Shown here in pieces: positions 8,458 through 32,423 of a stretch of DNA of 32,887 nucleotides. The DNA is taken from positions 1 to 32,887 of IMG/VR virus record IMGVR_UViG_3300031460_000004; one strand, 5' to 3'. Under the pieces are notes generated by a model that was given only the letters and a program-made list of their open reading frames with translations, did not search any database and was not told the DNA's origin. Position 1 is the stretch's first letter, and every line of letters begins with the position of its first letter. The DNA is from a virus. Taxonomy: Duplodnaviria > Caudoviricetes. Made by a program: the position numbers and the translations under genes.

Positions 8458-8877
8458 CTACCGGCGTGTCACGGCCTGCCACGCGCGCTCATCCAACCCA
8501 TCCATGTCTATGTCATCGCCATCACTGCCGTCATCCACGCTGCCCCAGAGATGAGGCGGCAAGGTCGGCGGCGCGTCAATCCAGAGGGGATCGCTGGCGA
8601 AAAACTCCTCTTCGGCGTCTTCCTCGGCCCGCGCCGCCTCGGCGGGCGTTGGCGGTGGCTTGAGAGCCTCGAACGCGCCCTGCGGGTTGTGCTGGATGGC
8701 CCACGCCACGAGACGCTCCTCGTGGCGCTCCTCGTGGCGCTCCTCCTCGTCCCACTCCTCATTGAGCGTGACGTAGGCCCACTCGTCTGGGGTTAGCAGG
8801 CGGCCGGGGCCACCAAAGAAGGTGCTATCGCGGAGTCGCCTCCACTCAGCCCTCTTCAGTGGCCGCCTGAGTTTGGG
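8458..8877 (-). CDS. Tail assembly chaperone C-terminal extension (gpT-like), reached by -1 frameshift
   Basis: Open -1 frame beginning at slippery heptamer C CCA AAC; no convincing start of its own; lies just before the tape measure gene. Confidence 0.7.
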   Translation of the reverse strand, partial: PKLRRPLKRAEWRRLRDSTFFGGPGRLLTPDEWAYVTLNEEWDEEERHEERHEERLVAWAIQHNPQGAFEALKPPPTPAEAARAEEDAEEEFFASDPLWIDAPPTLPPHLWGSVDDGSDGDDIDMDGLDERAWQAVTRR

Positions 8878-9407: not shown

Positions 9408-9968
9408 CTAGTTGCCGAGCAAGCCCTTCGGGACGTTGCGGCCTTGCTTGCCGTCGTCACCGAAGGCGTAGCCACGGGATATCGCGGTCATACTCTCGGT
9501 TAAGAGCCCTGTTGGGCTTTCGCCACCCCAGGAATAATTTGAAATCCCGCAATCGGAGTAGTGCCACGTTGCATCTTCGCGTGTCTGGTAGCCACCCTTT
9601 GGGTCCATAATGGCCTGGTAGAGATAGTGGTAGCGCATGACGAAGGGCAGGTCGCGGAAGTCCACGTCCTGCACGCCAGGATACTCGTTGCGCACCATTT
9701 CGGGGAGGTCCGACCCACGCTGCATCTGACGGCGCAGGGTGATGGTGAACTGGCGCGCGCCGACCACGACTTCCTGAAAGTCACTGCCGCCTTCGGGTTC
9801 CAGGTGGACGCCGTTCGCCTCGGCGTTGTTGAACATCTGCCAGCCGCCGAGCAACTGCCCTCCGAGGTAGAGTTGGCAATAGCGGGCGTGGCGTTTGCGT
9901 GTTCGGTTATTATCACGCATGTACGAGTGAATATCCTGCGAGAGGACAGGTCGGCTTGTCACAGGCAT
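9408..9968 (-). CDS. Tail tube protein
   Basis: Directly after the sheath gene; beta-rich; WHYSDCGISNYSWG...LTESMT pattern typical of tube proteins. Confidence 0.75.
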   Translation of the reverse strand: MPVTSRPVLSQDIHSYMRDNNRTRKRHARYCQLYLGGQLLGGWQMFNNAEANGVHLEPEGGSDFQEVVVGARQFTITLRRQMQRGSDLPEMVRNEYPGVQDVDFRDLPFVMRYHYLYQAIMDPKGGYQTREDATWHYSDCGISNYSWGGESPTGLLTESMTAISRGYAFGDDGKQGRNVPKGLLGN

Positions 9969-12593: not shown

Positions 12594-13058
12594 TTAAAGG
12601 TCGGCGGCGAAAGCGTACGCCCCGAAATAAGCGCGCATCTCGCGCACGCGGGGCGACGCCCACGCGCGGGCCGCGAAGTCATTCGCCGCCCGGCCTTTTG
12701 TCATGTCCGGCGCCGGCGCCGATGCCTGTGCCGTTGTCTGCGAGTGGACGCGCGCGCCCTGACGACGCGAGGACGAGGATGAGGCGCGCACCCCTCGTGT
12801 CGTCGTGCGCGCTATTGTACGTGGGGACGCTCCCGTGCGCACGAACTCACCGTCATAGACCATGCGCAACTCGCCCATCAGATGGCCGGTCGGCACGAAG
12901 CGCACGCTTAGTTGCAAGAGCCCCGTGCGGCGCGGGGCCTGCGCCTGTGTTTCTTCGGCCCACGCCTCGCCCACGGCCAGCAAAGCGGCGTCGGCGCCCT
13001 GATCCAGGCGTTCCAGCAGACGCGCGACAGCCTCACTCAGACTCCCGTGTGACGCCAC
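12594..13058 (-). CDS. HK97 gp10-like neck/tail completion protein
   Basis: QAQAPRRTGLLQLSV resembles the AP.DTG.L..SI motif; position in the neck module. Confidence 0.7.
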   Translation of the reverse strand: MASHGSLSEAVARLLERLDQGADAALLAVGEAWAEETQAQAPRRTGLLQLSVRFVPTGHLMGELRMVYDGEFVRTGASPRTIARTTTRGVRASSSSSRRQGARVHSQTTAQASAPAPDMTKGRAANDFAARAWASPRVREMRAYFGAYAFAADL

Positions 13059-15054: not shown

Positions 15055-15089
15055 TTGTCATAGTATCTAAAGTGGGGTATAATAGATAC
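15055..15089 (+). promoter_or_regulatory. Sigma70 promoter with overlapping inverted-repeat operator
   Basis: TTGTCA-17 bp-TATAAT; GTATCTA (15063-15069) and TAGATAC (15083-15089) form an inverted repeat. Confidence 0.8.
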
Positions 15090-15104
15090 ATGAGGAGGGA
15101 AGAC

Positions 15105-15272
15105 ATGGAAGACGACCGGCCTATTAGCGTCCGCCTGACCGCCGATCTTAAACGGGGCTTACGAAAGGAGGCAGAGCGAAATCACCGCTCAATGAACGGT
15201 GAGATCAACGTCGCTATCTTGGAGCATCTGGCACGCGCCACCGTCAAGCGCGCCACGGGGAGAGAGGACTAG
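15105..15272 (+). CDS. Arc-family ribbon-helix-helix DNA-binding protein
   Basis: ISVRLTADLKRGLRKEAERNHRSMNGEINVAI matches the Arc pattern; GAGGAGG RBS; alternative leaderless ATG at 15090. Confidence 0.85.
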   Translation: MEDDRPISVRLTADLKRGLRKEAERNHRSMNGEINVAILEHLARATVKRATGRED

Positions 15273-27822: not shown

Positions 27823-29487
27823 CTAGTAGCGGCTATCGGAGGTCCAACCTAGCCCGTCCGCGTCGCCCGCGTAGGGATTATGGCCGTACAGGTCGTCCGT
27901 GCCCTCGACGCCATAGCGGGAGTCGATTGAATAGTTTTGTAGCCCCAGGTCTGAGGCAAGGCTTGTCACGACCTGCTGTGTAGGAGCCCAGAGGCGTCCA
28001 ATTTCAGCCAGTGCGGCCGAAATTACACGGTCATCATGGGCGCTGCCGGAGGCATTCGTCGCACCTGAGTCCTCCAGCACGTACGTCATTGCCTCTGCCA
28101 CAAACGCGGCATTGCGGTACGGACGCCCCTCACGAATAGTCGCGGCCAGGGCGTCAATCATGACGGGTTTGCTCGCGCTCGTCGTCTTCCAGCCAGGCCG
28201 CTCCGTCACATTGCCGAACACATCTTGCTGCATGTGGAGGTTGCCGTACCCCTCAATGGATGTGAGGGCAAGCAAGGTCGCTGTTCCATGATTATTTTGT
28301 TCGACAACGGTGTAGGCGTCGTTGTACATGCGCCCGAGGACGGCAATGTGCCGTGCGAACTCCTCCGGTTCCCAGTGGCCGTGCAGTTCGGCCACATCGA
28401 GGCCCGTATAGTAGTCAAGGACGGTGGCCGAACTGTAGTCACCCCTGAGTAGGCCCTCGGCCGTGTCCACGCCCATCACATAGCGCCCATTCTCCATGGG
28501 CATCTCCCAGATGCGCGCGTGACCCAAGGGTTGCCCTGTCGTCGTATCCATCCCCAGGGGCAGTGTCTCGATGGGCGCGACGCCCGTCATGGCGCGCAGC
28601 GCGGGGATGTCGAAGCGGGGACGACCCGAGAGGATGAACGCTTCGGCGGCGTCCGCTGGGAACTCCTGAGCCGCGGCCCAGGCAGGAAGATTTGCCGTGG
28701 CCTGGTCGTACCATGCCTGGTCTCGCCCCGGCCTGACGAACCACGGCAGAAAGATAGGCGTCATCGCCGAGTCGCCCTCGGTCGCCTTAACCCACTGCTG
28801 ATGGAAGAAGTTGCCCGCGCCGTTAGCCGTGCTCATGCCCACGATGCGATTGCCGGCGCTGCGCGCGGTCGGCGCGGCGGCGGCGAACACCTGCGCTTGC
28901 AGATAGGGCGCTTGCCGCGCCCATTCGTCAATAATTAAGACCTGCGCGGCCAATGAGCGGGCGCTATTGGCCGTCGTCGGCTTGACGATGATGCGTGAGC
29001 GATTCACAAGGGAGATGCGGGAGATGATGGCCGTATTGATGACGGGGATACGCACCGCATCGGGCAGGTAGTCGTAGGCCACGCGGCACTTCGCCATGGC
29101 CTCGTTCGCTGTTTCGAGATCCTGCGAGAGGATGATGATGGTCCAGCCAGGGAAATGATGGATGCAGTAGACGGCGAGGGCGGCCACCGTCTCGGTCATG
29201 CCAATTTGCCGCGCCTTGAGCACGATGAGCTCGCGATAATGCCAGAACGCACGGATAAAGTCCTGCTGATAGTCGTACAGGACAAAGGGGATCGGTCCTT
29301 TGCCTGTATCGGACATCACCTTGCAGTTCGCGTTGATCCACGCGATGCAGTGGTCGGCGCGCTCATCGGGCGTCAGTTCGGCTTTAGGTGTTGCGGCCTC
29401 AGCCTGTCGTCGTCGCCGTTCGCGTTCCGCCAGAAGAATGTCCAGTGATGAGGGCGTCCAACTCTTCGTCGGTGAGGCGAGTGACAT
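27823..29487 (-). CDS. terL: Terminase large subunit
   Basis: LYDYQ adenine-binding motif, Walker A KARQIGMT, Walker B LIIDE, coupling motif STANG, nuclease GVDTAEG..DYS and HDDRVIS. Confidence 0.95.
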   Translation of the reverse strand: MSLASPTKSWTPSSLDILLAERERRRRQAEAATPKAELTPDERADHCIAWINANCKVMSDTGKGPIPFVLYDYQQDFIRAFWHYRELIVLKARQIGMTETVAALAVYCIHHFPGWTIIILSQDLETANEAMAKCRVAYDYLPDAVRIPVINTAIISRISLVNRSRIIVKPTTANSARSLAAQVLIIDEWARQAPYLQAQVFAAAAPTARSAGNRIVGMSTANGAGNFFHQQWVKATEGDSAMTPIFLPWFVRPGRDQAWYDQATANLPAWAAAQEFPADAAEAFILSGRPRFDIPALRAMTGVAPIETLPLGMDTTTGQPLGHARIWEMPMENGRYVMGVDTAEGLLRGDYSSATVLDYYTGLDVAELHGHWEPEEFARHIAVLGRMYNDAYTVVEQNNHGTATLLALTSIEGYGNLHMQQDVFGNVTERPGWKTTSASKPVMIDALAATIREGRPYRNAAFVAEAMTYVLEDSGATNASGSAHDDRVISAALAEIGRLWAPTQQVVTSLASDLGLQNYSIDSRYGVEGTDDLYGHNPYAGDADGLGWTSDSRY

Positions 29488-29917
29488 CTATGCGCTCCGT
29501 GGCCTCGCCCATGTCAAGCCGCTCGGTCTTATCGGCGTAGTCCAATAGGCGCGCGATCCAATCGCCGCGTTTCGCCAGCGCGGCGGCGTCTATCTTCGCC
29601 AGTGCCGCGACACCTTTGCCCCTGACCGCCGCCGCGACCTTAATGCGGTCCTGCCGGCGCTTGTCCAACTCAGCCAGCCGCGCGGCCTTGTCGCGCGCGG
29701 CGGCCTCGGCTGCTATCGCTTCGTCGTGCTGCCTACATCGCTCCTGCCAATGAAAGGACGATGACCACTCTTTGAGAGTGGCGATGCGCGTCGTGGGTGG
29801 ACGCAGTTCAGGTGCGCTTTGGTAGGTCTGCGCGAGGCATTCGAGGCTACGGGGCGGCGTCTGCGTCTGGTAGGCCGTATAGGCCCGCAACGCCTGTGCG
29901 GATTCGGTTGTCACCAT
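29399..29917 (-). CDS. terS: Terminase small subunit
   Basis: Overlaps the terL start; ESAQA..AY..Y, WSSSFHWQER and C-terminal DVTRLTDEELDAL patterns. Confidence 0.8.
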   Translation of the reverse strand: MVTTESAQALRAYTAYQTQTPPRSLECLAQTYQSAPELRPPTTRIATLKEWSSSFHWQERCRQHDEAIAAEAAARDKAARLAELDKRRQDRIKVAAAVRGKGVAALAKIDAAALAKRGDWIARLLDYADKTERLDMGEATERIDVTRLTDEELDALITGHSSGGTRTATTTG

Positions 29918-30504: not shown

Positions 30505-30790
30505 GTCTCATCACGCGACACAAGCCGCCCGAGGGGAGCCATCGAAGGTTCCCCTCCACCAACGCCAGAGGGCGAACGGCGGCTCATCGTGCAGCGCACG
30601 CCATACCCCTCGCCACACCCAATAGAGGCAGGCGAGAGCGGGACTCGACTCCCACGAGCGGCGCGCGCTGTGTACAAACAGGCTGCGGGCGCCGTTGTTC
30701 CGCGCTGGAAGGAGGGCAGCGCGGCGGTCGCCCGCTCATGCAATGCAGCCAGTCGCAGATTGATGTGGCTTAACGCGCCGCAAACCACGG
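30505..30790 (-). ncRNA. Candidate structured non-coding RNA or leader
   Basis: About 290-nt gap with no convincing gene and several nested helices identified by eye. Confidence 0.5.
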
Positions 30791-30794
30791 GGTT

Positions 30795-30917
30795 TTAACC
30801 CCGGTGGGTAGGCGCGATGGCCATCTCAGCCGCGCGCAGGCGGTCGCTCGTCCCATCCTCATCCGTGCCCGTCTCGGGGTCAGGCGTGTCGCCGTAGGCA
30901 TCCGTGGTCTCACCCAT
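30795..30917 (-). CDS. Small acidic peptide (40 aa)
   Basis: MGETTDAYGDTPDPETG...; ATG overlaps the end of the upstream ORF; below the ORF-track cutoff. Confidence 0.45.
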   Translation of the reverse strand: MGETTDAYGDTPDPETGTDEDGTSDRLRAAEMAIAPTHRG

Positions 30918-31224
30918 CGCTGTCAACGCCTCTCTCCGCCGCCGCGCCGTGTCGCGCTAGCACGCGGCCCCGGTCGCCCAGGATAGGCGCCAAGACGCGC
31001 GCCCGCTCAAACGGCGTCTCGCACGCGGCCAGGAGCGCGGCCTGCTCTTTGTACTGGCGGTGCGCGTTCGCGGCCCGTACAAGGGCGCGACGCGCGGCGG
31101 TCGGGTCATGGCCGTTGCGCAGAACGCCCGCAAGCAGATCGATCTCGGCCGGGTCGCCCCAGGTAGGCGGCGGCGCGGCCTGGTAGTAGCGCCGGCCAAA
31201 CGAGGATGAGGCAGGCAGAGACAT
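30910..31224 (-). CDS. Hypothetical protein, first gene after the leader terminator
   Basis: GGAGGT RBS, ATG 31224. Confidence 0.65.
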   Translation of the reverse strand: MSLPASSSFGRRYYQAAPPPTWGDPAEIDLLAGVLRNGHDPTAARRALVRAANAHRQYKEQAALLAACETPFERARVLAPILGDRGRVLARHGAAAERGVDSDG

Positions 31225-31469
31225 GGCCTGACCTCCACCACGACGCCGACACAACAAGACGCCCCCGCGACCTGTGTAGTAGAGGTCGCGAGGGCGTTGT
31301 ATAACGGGTAAAAAGGCAACAGGGCGTAATTATCCACCCCCAGCATACGAGAGAAAAACAGCGATTTGCGGCGTTTGCGCGCATACGCAAAAAGTGGGGG
31401 CGTTGTAGCCGTAGGAGGGAGAAAGCGTTAGATAGTCAATTGAGCGGACGTTCCCCACCACAGGGAATG

Positions 31470-31513
31470 AAAAAGGGATGGCCTGGAGCCCTGGAAACTT
31501 TCAAGGCCATCCC
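31470..31513 (-). terminator. Intrinsic terminator of the late leader
   Basis: Minus strand GGGATGGCCT...AGGCCATCCC followed by TTTTT. Confidence 0.75.
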
Positions 31514-31525
31514 GTCCGTCGCCAT

Positions 31526-31599
31526 CCGCCCGTAGCTCAGTGGATTAGAGCAAACCAATTCGCATGGGGAGGCCGTGGGTTCGAGTCCCACTGGACGGA
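31526..31599 (+). tRNA. Degenerate tRNA-Arg(TCG)-like sequence (pseudo-tRNA), probably transcribed antisense
   Basis: Canonical D arm GCTC-AGTGGATTA-GAGC and T arm GTGGG-TTCGAGT-CCCAC; acceptor stem has one C-A mismatch; anticodon stem only 3 of 5 pairs; A32 and C37 atypical; no CCA. Confidence 0.65.
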
Positions 31600-31609
31600 T
31601 GCCTGTTTT

Positions 31610-31639
31610 ATTTTACATGCAATCGTGCGTTTTGGTCAA
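31610..31639 (-). promoter_or_regulatory. Putative late promoter
   Basis: Minus strand TTGACC-18 bp-TAAAAT; a start near 31603 points into the reverse complement of the tRNA. Confidence 0.65.
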
Positions 31640-31724
31640 CTATTTGGGTTGACGAGGCGCGCTGAACATCCTCATGCGAGCGCGGACTGGTCCGCTCGGT
31701 CGCGTGAACGACGCTGGGAGAAGG

Positions 31725-32423
31725 TCAACCTGCCTCATCCATGTCGTCGCCGCGGCTCGTCATCAGCGCCTCAACGATAGCGGAGGGTGGCACAATGCCG
31801 ATGTAGAGCGTACGAAAATGCAGGCGAGCGCGCTCTAAACGACGGGTCACGGTTGAATCGGTCACATGTAGATGCGACGCGATGACCTTTTGCTGGATGG
31901 CAGTCCGGCGCCCGAAGGAGAGCAGACGCTGTGCCAACGTTTCCTCGCCCTGCGCGGGATCGCCCGGCGCTGCGGCGTCGTCGTCGAGCGGATAGGCCAG
32001 GACGAACGCGGCGAAATCGTCAGGGTACACTTGGGCCATCAGGTCATACGCGCGCCGGACAGAAAAGCGGTCCACCTTGCGCATCAGGGCATCCTTGACC
32101 GTCACGTCGTAGACGTGGCTGCCCTCGTGCATCTGCTCCGTCATCGCAAAATAGGTCACCTCCGGCCGGTCAGTGTTGCGGTACGCGTCGCCTATTTCCG
32201 CGCCCACGCGCCGCGTGCGCTCGTCTGTAAATGCCTTCTGTTTGCCAAAGTTGACCGCACGGCGATCTAGACACGGTTTACACTCACACGACGGCGCGTG
32301 AAAAACACCCTTCGTCGTCACACGCGGTCGGGTGCTCTGCGGCCCACTCGCATACACGGAGCGGTGGTTCTGTGCTTTGCTTCCCACAGGGCTTCTCCTC
32401 TCGGAGTACAGGGCGCGTCTCAA
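31725..32423 (-). CDS. Putative late transcription regulator (Cys cluster plus C-terminal sigma-region-4-like HTH)
   Basis: H..SCECKPC near the N-terminus; QQKVIASHLHVTDSTVTRRLERAR HTH; directly upstream of the late promoter; start codon uncertain. Confidence 0.6.
   Translation of the reverse strand: MRRALYSERRSPVGSKAQNHRSVYASGPQSTRPRVTTKGVFHAPSCECKPCLDRRAVNFGKQKAFTDERTRRVGAEIGDAYRNTDRPEVTYFAMTEQMHEGSHVYDVTVKDALMRKVDRFSVRRAYDLMAQVYPDDFAAFVLAYPLDDDAAAPGDPAQGEETLAQRLLSFGRRTAIQQKVIASHLHVTDSTVTRRLERARLHFRTLYIGIVPPSAIVEALMTSRGDDMDEAG

Follow-up and report, generated by a model that had tools for sequence, protein, structure and literature searches.

Introduction

Phages answer host defences that cut tRNAs by carrying replacement tRNAs. 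It would be another kind of tactic to encode a tRNA's complement, and such a gene would offer a direct test of whether tRNA halves signal in bacteria. Experiments in E. coli have shown that the prophage sponge RNAs AsxR and AgvB act with Hfq against small RNAs of the host (PMC8065619), and StxS, a terminated RNA made from a late promoter, regulates mRNAs (PMC7547250). The pseudo-tRNA called tRNA-Other in Bacillus cereus is expressed within larger RNAs (PMC3399842), and cis-antisense transcripts of tRNAs are found among the asRNAs of Streptomyces (PMC8388888) and in chloroplasts (PMC3276175). In Salmonella, vesicle tRFs act against phage P22 (10.1101/2021.11.09.467952), and RtcR is activated by 5′ tRNA fragments (PMC7790460). 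These last two accounts supply a reason for a phage to neutralise tRNA fragments, although a phage RNA that binds such fragments does not figure in the abstract of either (10.1101/2021.11.09.467952; PMC7790460). Our literature search, whose coverage excluded most subscription journals, found no phage gene for an anti-tRNA RNA.

The stretch of DNA analysed here (hereafter the window) is an entire virus record of 32,887 bases. Pfam and PHROG annotation places genes for tail sheath, capsid, portal and terminase subunits and a ParB-like gene on its minus strand, with the large terminase subunit at 27823-29487 and the small subunit at 29399-29917. Between these late genes and a gene for a 220-aa protein (31725-32387, minus strand) lies a tRNA-like cassette. 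Like AsxR, AgvB and other lambdoid late-region morons (PMC8065619), it is an accessory unit near the late region with its own predicted promoter and intrinsic terminator, and its small RNA is proposed, here by prediction, to neutralise a host RNA by pairing. Unlike those sponges, the cassette RNA is predicted from sequence and would complement a tRNA. The cassette also shares with tRNA-Other (PMC3399842) a non-translating tRNA-like element of mobile-DNA origin that is recruited, in the cassette by prediction, into a longer regulatory RNA, but its signals lie on the opposite strand. As in the cis-antisense tRNA transcripts (RF04354; PMC8388888; PMC3276175), the predicted RNA reads as a tRNA in reverse complement. 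Those transcripts lie opposite working genes, whereas the sense gene in the cassette is broken, and any target must therefore be in trans. Rfam RF04354 itself (plastid ycf2 5′ UTR) scores 29.7 bits on the region against a gathering score of 65.7.

Results and discussion

A tRNA-Arg-like block enclosed by minus-strand signals

A pseudo-tRNA derived from tRNA-Arg occupies 31526-31599 on the plus strand. ARAGORN reports tRNA-Arg(TCG) at 31525-31600 on this strand, and Rfam RF00005 matches 31526-31599 at E 1.6e-05, its 41 bits exceeding the gathering score of 29; for comparison, an intact tRNA-Arg on L267 scores 73.2 bits. A preliminary description of this DNA had noted a tRNA-Arg-like cloverleaf with intact D and T arms and a damaged anticodon arm, and the matches bear this out. 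Every pair is present in the stems of the D arm (31535-31551) and the T arm (31575-31591), against three of five in the anticodon stem, whose loop is abnormal (A32...C37) around the anticodon TCG (31560-31562). The acceptor stem carries a C4-A69 mismatch, and A73 (31599) is followed by TGCC in place of CCA. Since a functional tRNA-Arg has a five-pair anticodon stem, a pyrimidine at position 32 and a purine at position 37, the block as it reads does not qualify as a working tRNA-Arg. Its D loop retains A20, an arginine identity element. Conservation in tRNAs generally lies in the D and T arms, so finding them intact here partly reflects how the block was recognised.

The promoter and the U-tailed terminator that bracket the block are both on the minus strand, as had been proposed. 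The predicted promoter, TTGACC-18-TAAAAT (31639-31610), has its -35 hexamer at 31634-31639 and its -10 hexamer at 31610-31615, both identical in the relative L067. It matches the consensus at 10 of 12 positions, is one of only three minus-strand matches of at least 10/12 in all 32,887 bases, and would start transcription at about 31603-31604, 4-5 nt from A73. No plus-strand match of at least 9/12 to the consensus -35 and -10 hexamers occurs beyond 18498. The predicted intrinsic terminator (31470-31513) consists of a hairpin (31513-31475) and a U5 tract (31474-31470), and its stem starts 12 nt beyond tRNA position 1. The hairpin folds at -21.2 kcal/mol (z -3.2; equalled by 1 of 200 shuffles) and has a loop of more than 8 nt, which lies outside the size limit of the standard terminator scan. 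Only two of the 14 minus-strand T5 runs in the window are preceded by a hairpin, and this is one of them.

The RNA predicted from these signals (31604-31470, about 135 nt) would comprise the mirror image of the cloverleaf followed by the terminator, in keeping with the reverse complement of a tRNA, about 130 nt long, put forward previously. Its overall fold has a z of -1.87, with 7 of 200 shuffles as good. An imperfect tandem duplication on the plus strand (31505-31519 and 31520-31533, read by eye, the copies differing by an indel) gives the 5′ end of the RNA two alternative partners. In general, the minus-strand signals point to a terminated RNA as the likely product, the reverse complement of a tRNA-Arg. 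That some terminated transcript is made from this strand is in our estimate probable, and likelier than any single function for it; none of the 18 runs listed is an RNA dataset that carries the region. Judged by its sequence, the feature is real and odd; the case for it comes from one small family of phages. It is a warning that what is annotated as a phage tRNA may stand for an RNA read off the other strand.

Four of the six other strong promoter matches in the window lie just ahead of ORFs without a structural-gene match (at 1129, 4609 and 15055 on the plus strand and 2675 on the minus strand), a pattern that hints at consensus promoters as the mark of accessory units in this genome. The best match of the window (11/12; 15055-15272, plus strand) precedes a 55-codon ORF (15105-15272, plus strand) just ahead of an HNH endonuclease gene; by eye, we take its product to be like Arc-like ribbon-helix-helix proteins.

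The cassette and the late control region

The preliminary description had made the unit a late-operon leader, laid out like lambda Q/pR′/tR′. The relative L068 argues otherwise. Its regulator is 61% identical to that of the window, and it has the same regulator-parB-terS-terL order at 70-77% DNA identity, but no tRNA was found in it, and its 18.6-kb locus holds no counterpart of window 31400-31724 (score 32-34 against 26-40 for shuffles). What L068 does share is window 31316-31395 (minus strand), which it matches at 8623-8701 in 59 of 79 nt, a score that none of 1000 shuffles equalled. This region begins 16 nt past the regulator stop in L068 and lies about 75 nt downstream of the cassette terminator in the window. 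Because L068 keeps 31316-31395 directly behind the regulator while lacking 31400-31724, that region is the likelier native late control region, and the tRNA unit is by this comparison an insertion some 325 nt long. The lambda layout thus fits the conserved downstream unit, and the claim that the tRNA unit itself takes the place of the late leader is not supported. The cassette is probably not a late-gene on-switch. Missing from the same place in the syntenic L068, and also from the more distant L001, in which no tRNA was found either, it has the distribution of a moron; the preliminary description had itself named relatives without the block as evidence against its reading. The terminase relatives (64 loci) are distant, at 20-36% identity apart from one short piece at 48%, and among the 14 of them that were scanned, taken together with L001, one contained a tRNA.

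The native control region contains two -10-like hexamers 7 nt apart, TATGCT (31347-31342) and GATAAT (31334-31329), both on the minus strand, and has no consensus -35. Beyond it is a terminator-like hairpin with a weak tail (31259-31297, minus strand), and L068 has a U-tailed hairpin (8706-8737) at the matching place. In lambda late control, a -10-like pause element occupies +1 to +6. The tRNA unit starts AGGCAT and has no such element at these positions; the downstream unit has GATAAT (TATAAC in L068) 7 nt past its first hexamer and so recalls lambda pR′ with its pause element. It also recalls an Ltr-activated terS promoter (PMC3753634), although the 220-aa protein matches no Ltr family, the family of the late activators RinA and ArpU described there, a comparison that concerns the neighbour and not the cassette. 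As with StxS of lambdoid pR′/tR′ (PMC7547250), a short terminated and perhaps functional RNA would arise between regulator and late genes. StxS comes from the late promoter itself, whereas the anti-tRNA unit appears as an insert with the conserved unit downstream, next to a regulator without a Q family match.

The 220-aa protein is a putative late regulator with a C-terminal helix-turn-helix resembling sigma region 4, an assignment made through its relatives, of which P0024 has a Sigma70_r4 match (E 8.9e-08). The protein itself matches no Pfam or PHROG family and neither the Ltr nor the Q family; Foldseek returned weak sigma region 4 rows (E 0.58 or worse, for a model of pLDDT 54), and an atlas search gave weak leads to the same region. 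Alignment searches with it recovered one viral locus (L001), three metagenome loci, one of them the window's own record, and none in genomes. Close alleles of its gene fall into two C-terminal types, ending EAG or EAS (31725-31860, minus strand), which suggests recombination inside the helix-turn-helix region, adjoining the cassette. Past the late control region the first ORF (30910-31224, minus strand) encodes 104 aa, with GGAGG upstream and no Pfam family. A perfect 12-bp inverted repeat (31204-31215 and 31729-31740) links the 3′ end of the regulator gene with the start of this next gene, and a second arm of 11 bp covers the ribosome site of the latter. This repeat may be due to chance, as run X6 carries three changes in the 12-mer, one per codon.

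These observations allow a scheme for the cassette in its setting. A consensus promoter would fire without the phage late regulator, like those of other accessory genes here, and the RNA would for that reason be made in the lysogen too. The terminator would close the RNA by default and insulate the late control region downstream, and the late genes would probably start separately, at about 31335, through the 31725-32387 protein.

Homologous cassettes and sequence variants in metagenomes

Assembled contigs of seven metagenome runs, whose studies may form one campaign, were aligned to the window. Five runs contain at least half of the region's words; all are rock metagenomes, and one is possibly the source of the window itself. 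In five of the seven runs a contig of 506-532 nt departs from the window at 31646, its loose end the same each time, and another of 1031-1078 nt departs at 31472 in four of seven. As the loose ends stay window-like for about 17 nt on the right and 30 nt on the left, the elements in this second context would be homologues of the cassette, each about 225 nt long. Run X4 has the two right flanks joined to one listed left flank. In X2 and X4, the two of these five runs whose contigs were aligned across the whole regulator gene, the 506-532-nt contig did not match that gene at 80%. In run X8 a 6146-nt contig on the regulator gene (31858-32400, 28 differing letters) gives no cover of the cassette, and run X11 has no cover left of 31601; missing cover is uninformative in both cases.

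Listed variants within 31472-31646 fall at 31498, 31514, 31519, 31572, 31579, 31605, 31609, 31617 and 31618, and none of those listed touches the promoter hexamers or 31520-31571. Variation is lower in the tRNA body (2 of 85 positions) than in the flanks (7 of 90), but not significantly so (p 0.17; p 0.058 with two unlisted differences added). The change at 31579, G53-to-A, occurs in L067 and run X2. It opens the plus-strand T stem, where G53-C61 is intact in the window, and leaves a G-U pair on the minus strand. C4-A69, a mismatch on the plus strand that can pair on the minus strand, points the same way, whereas G7-U66 pairs on the plus strand and is an A-C mismatch on the minus strand; the asymmetry favours the minus strand by just 2 to 1. 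Past the terminator, L067 and runs X2, X3 and X5 have 3-4 letters instead of the 37-nt segment 31424-31460. A stretch upstream of the promoter (31658-31678) has a 21-bp near copy about 23 kb away on a 25-kb contig of run X2, and part of it also occurs in the second right flank; it is possibly an operator.

Candidate partners of the predicted RNA

Our preferred reading, which we hold tentatively, is that the cassette is an accessory unit whose terminated RNA of about 135 nt pairs in trans with the 5′ part of a host tRNA-Arg. We prefer it on account of a match to the 5′ part of a natural tRNA, the weakness of the mRNA targets and the unclear case from CGA codons. Positions 1-27 of the pseudo-tRNA agree at 25 of 27 with the tRNA-Arg(ACG) of an unrelated Tsukamurella plasmid, against 4 of 7 for the 3′ acceptor strand. 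The 5′ half of that tRNA is the best binder of 102 tRNAs (-26.3 kcal/mol; 3′ half -8.6). This asymmetry, drawn from one comparator picked by similarity, fits selection for pairing with the 5′ part of a host tRNA-Arg. The tight bracketing of the block, with a start 4-5 nt from A73 supplied by one of three promoters and an end by one of two terminators on the strand, agrees with this reading, as do the absence of plus-strand promoter matches beyond 18498, the defects of the block as a tRNA (with G53-to-A breaking only the plus-strand stem), the lack of a counterpart in L068, the second flanks at 31646 and 31472, and the freedom of 31520-31571 from listed variants.

Several points weigh against it. 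The best-binding tRNAs had been retrieved for resemblance to the query, and a tRNA-Val 5′ half scores -22.8 kcal/mol, close to tRNA-Arg, so the pairing may not be specific. Conserved D and T arms are common to any tRNA, the lower variation of the body is not significant, and the wobble asymmetry is small. A mature, modified tRNA is difficult to invade. In the most speculative step, the RNA would act as a sponge, its anti-D arm and anti-acceptor strand pairing over about 25 bp with 5′ halves of tRNA-Arg or with precursors in an unfolded state. A stronger form, in which a dedicated, exchangeable anti-tRNA gene soaks up the 5′ halves made from tRNA-Arg by an anticodon nuclease and so mutes tRNA-fragment signalling or defence, we consider unlikely; if true, an anti-tRNA gene would be an RNA counter-defence against tRNA fragments.

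Searches beyond this family likewise lend the preferred reading no distant homologue. A D-arm plus T-arm pattern gave no matches in viral contigs or genome contigs, and the cassette has no match in the G001 record. The architecture itself, a T-loop followed by an opposite-strand promoter, was sought in viral contigs (60 of 64 parts scanned). Spacers of 16-19 gave at least 98 distinct matches at 120 loci, of which 22 were distinct tRNA cases; the wrong-spacer control (21-24) gave 54 at 70 loci, with 24 such cases. With 22 cases against 24, opposite-strand promoters are not enriched at tRNA 3′ ends in these contigs and a promoter-like match there can also arise by chance; the bracketed layout therefore does not hold generally, and the statistics for this window are post hoc. 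By eye, only five near-identical tRNA-Gln loci with 19-nt spacers had a U-rich-tailed hairpin next to the 5′ end of the tRNA, and their palindrome resembles parS. On L084, L096 and L129 an intact tRNA-Arg(TCT) has a near-consensus opposite-strand promoter 2-7 nt beyond its 3′ end. A ribosome site and ATG adjoin the tRNA 5′ end there, so that the anti-tRNA would be the leader of an mRNA.

A doubtful though serious alternative is that a tRNA-Arg gene was captured on the opposite strand and decayed, leaving a short RNA without a tRNA-related job and a terminator retained to block read-through from the regulator into the late region. The defects of the pseudo-tRNA and its absence from L068 and L001 agree with this, further accessory genes do sit on the plus strand of the late region, the conservation of the tRNA body is not significant, and recent exchange could explain the identity between contexts. 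Such decay requires a coincidence, however, namely a 10/12 promoter, one of three such sites on the strand, that starts 4-5 nt from the tRNA end. It also seems not to be ongoing, as the damaged anticodon arm has no variant among those listed.

It is less probable, in our view, that the RNA is a real small RNA for which the tRNA is merely a scaffold, acting on mRNAs through an exposed CCUCCCC stretch or serving as a protein decoy. This anti-Shine-Dalgarno-like stretch is freed by the broken anticodon stem and is weakly paired in the predicted fold, and there are precedents in StxS (PMC7547250) and in the pseudo-tRNA within a regulatory RNA (PMC3399842). No outstanding target for CCUCCCC was found in the window or in 10 kb upstream in L067, a search that covered phage DNA, including about half of the 81.6-kb relative; the ribosome site of the first late gene ranks 129 of 2832. 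Moreover, many tRNAs yield CCUCC in reverse. A T-arm-like hairpin in the late transcript (30637-30655, minus strand) is complementary to the anti-T arm and forms the best duplex with it (-30.2 kcal/mol; none of 25 hairpin-keeping shuffles as good, best -29.0, three seeds tried). We rejected it as a target because L067 alters the hairpin without compensation.

Folding and the proposed switch

The preliminary description had proposed that the 5′ end of the RNA pairs either proximally, closing the anti-cloverleaf, or distally, with the 5′ arm of the terminator, and that a tRNA or 5′ half could flip it into read-through. Both pairings exist as described. The conflict of the distal one with the terminator is partial, in that an extension of the alternative helix competes while its 4-bp core (GUCC/GGAC) lies just outside the terminator and is compatible with it. 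When the RNA is folded stepwise, the proximal helix is the first to form; at 99-114 nt the distal pairing is favoured (probability 0.99) without any ligand, and at 129-138 nt the closing helix (0.94-0.99) and the terminator (0.997-0.999) prevail. With conformers forced, in equilibrium calculations, the terminated fold leads by 7.9-9.6 kcal/mol in the free RNA and by 6.1-7.8 kcal/mol with the 5′-half site blocked, a shift of 1.8 kcal/mol that leaves the terminator preferred. When the variants 31498, 31514 and 31519 are combined in an assumed phase, the lead is about 15 kcal/mol free and 10 kcal/mol blocked. Co-folding with a perfect 5′ half or with the natural tRNA-Arg(ACG) 5′ half leaves the terminator intact.

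We therefore judge it very unlikely that the unit is a late-operon attenuator in which a tRNA-Arg 5′ half takes the proximal strand, so that the released 5′ end can block the terminator. The existence of both pairings, the predicted equilibrium at 99-114 nt and the entry of any read-through into late genes speak for it, and since the calculations are at equilibrium and barriers out of the alternative fold are 8-14 kcal/mol, a kinetic trap may exist. Nevertheless, the terminated fold is the more stable by 6-10 kcal/mol in every case modelled on the window, bound or free, and stepwise folding gives the terminator at full length. The distal pairing forms ligand-free, G31514T (four of seven runs) removes one alternative pair and lengthens the terminator, and L068 has late genes without the unit. 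In these models there is no sign that a tRNA controls the terminator, and no T-box motif or specifier stem matched Rfam up to E 10 in 31200-31760.

Expression of the plus strand and roles of the DNA

That the plus strand is expressed, as a tRNA or tRNA-like RNA with anticodon UCG or as a non-coding mimic, seems to us hardly probable. The Rfam and ARAGORN matches, the canonical arm lengths and the retained A20 and UCG would suit such a product, and Arg-like tRNA genes with odd anticodons, followed by sense-strand hairpins, occur on actinobacterial plasmids. No plus-strand promoter match lies near the block, however, the anticodon stem is broken, and G53-to-A disrupts the T stem. CGA makes up 26 of 465 Arg codons (5.6%) in minus-strand genes of the window and 13 of 224 (5.8%) in the tRNA-less L068, although in four matched genes the counts are 9 of 91 and 4 of 90; codon usage makes no clear case for a functional UCG tRNA. 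The plasmid genes in question (1502-1576 on L265 and L268, 1504-1576 on L266, from Corynebacterium and Prescottella plasmids) have an Arg-type D loop, anticodon AAC and an unpaired first acceptor position, with a sense-strand hairpin after each. They are not in the PLSDB gene table, which contains no RNA genes. As analogues of the cassette they were rejected, since their 3′ ends carry no opposite-strand promoter match.

Most improbable is a role of the DNA itself, as an attachment-site scar or a conserved linker at a module recombination point. In its favour, the assemblies show a single core shared by two left flanks and two right flanks, both right flanks on a single listed left flank in X4, and the tRNA 5′ end carries a small duplication. 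Against it, the second flanks are diverged homologues (about 30 nt left, 17 nt right) and not unrelated DNA, the entire tRNA and not just its 3′ half is present, and Pfam and PHROG annotation recognised no integrase in the window.

Other elements of the region

All three phages have a conserved three-way-junction element ahead of parB or terS (window 30523-30584, minus strand; L067 about 12960-13030; L068 about 9425-9490). It has 20 pairs, with 95% of cells paired and no compensatory change, and gave no match in Rfam and no pattern match in viral contigs. In the window it lies inside a longer non-coding sequence (30523-30893), which L067 shares at 91% identity. Conjugation genes immediately precede the late regulator: L067 (1259-8841) encodes TrbL/VirB6 (PF04610), a TraG P-loop ATPase (PF19044) and a type IV coupling protein (PF02534), and L068 (2818-7157) has a weak TrbL match at the same place. 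By these gene assignments, the element looks like a hybrid of a phage and a conjugative element.
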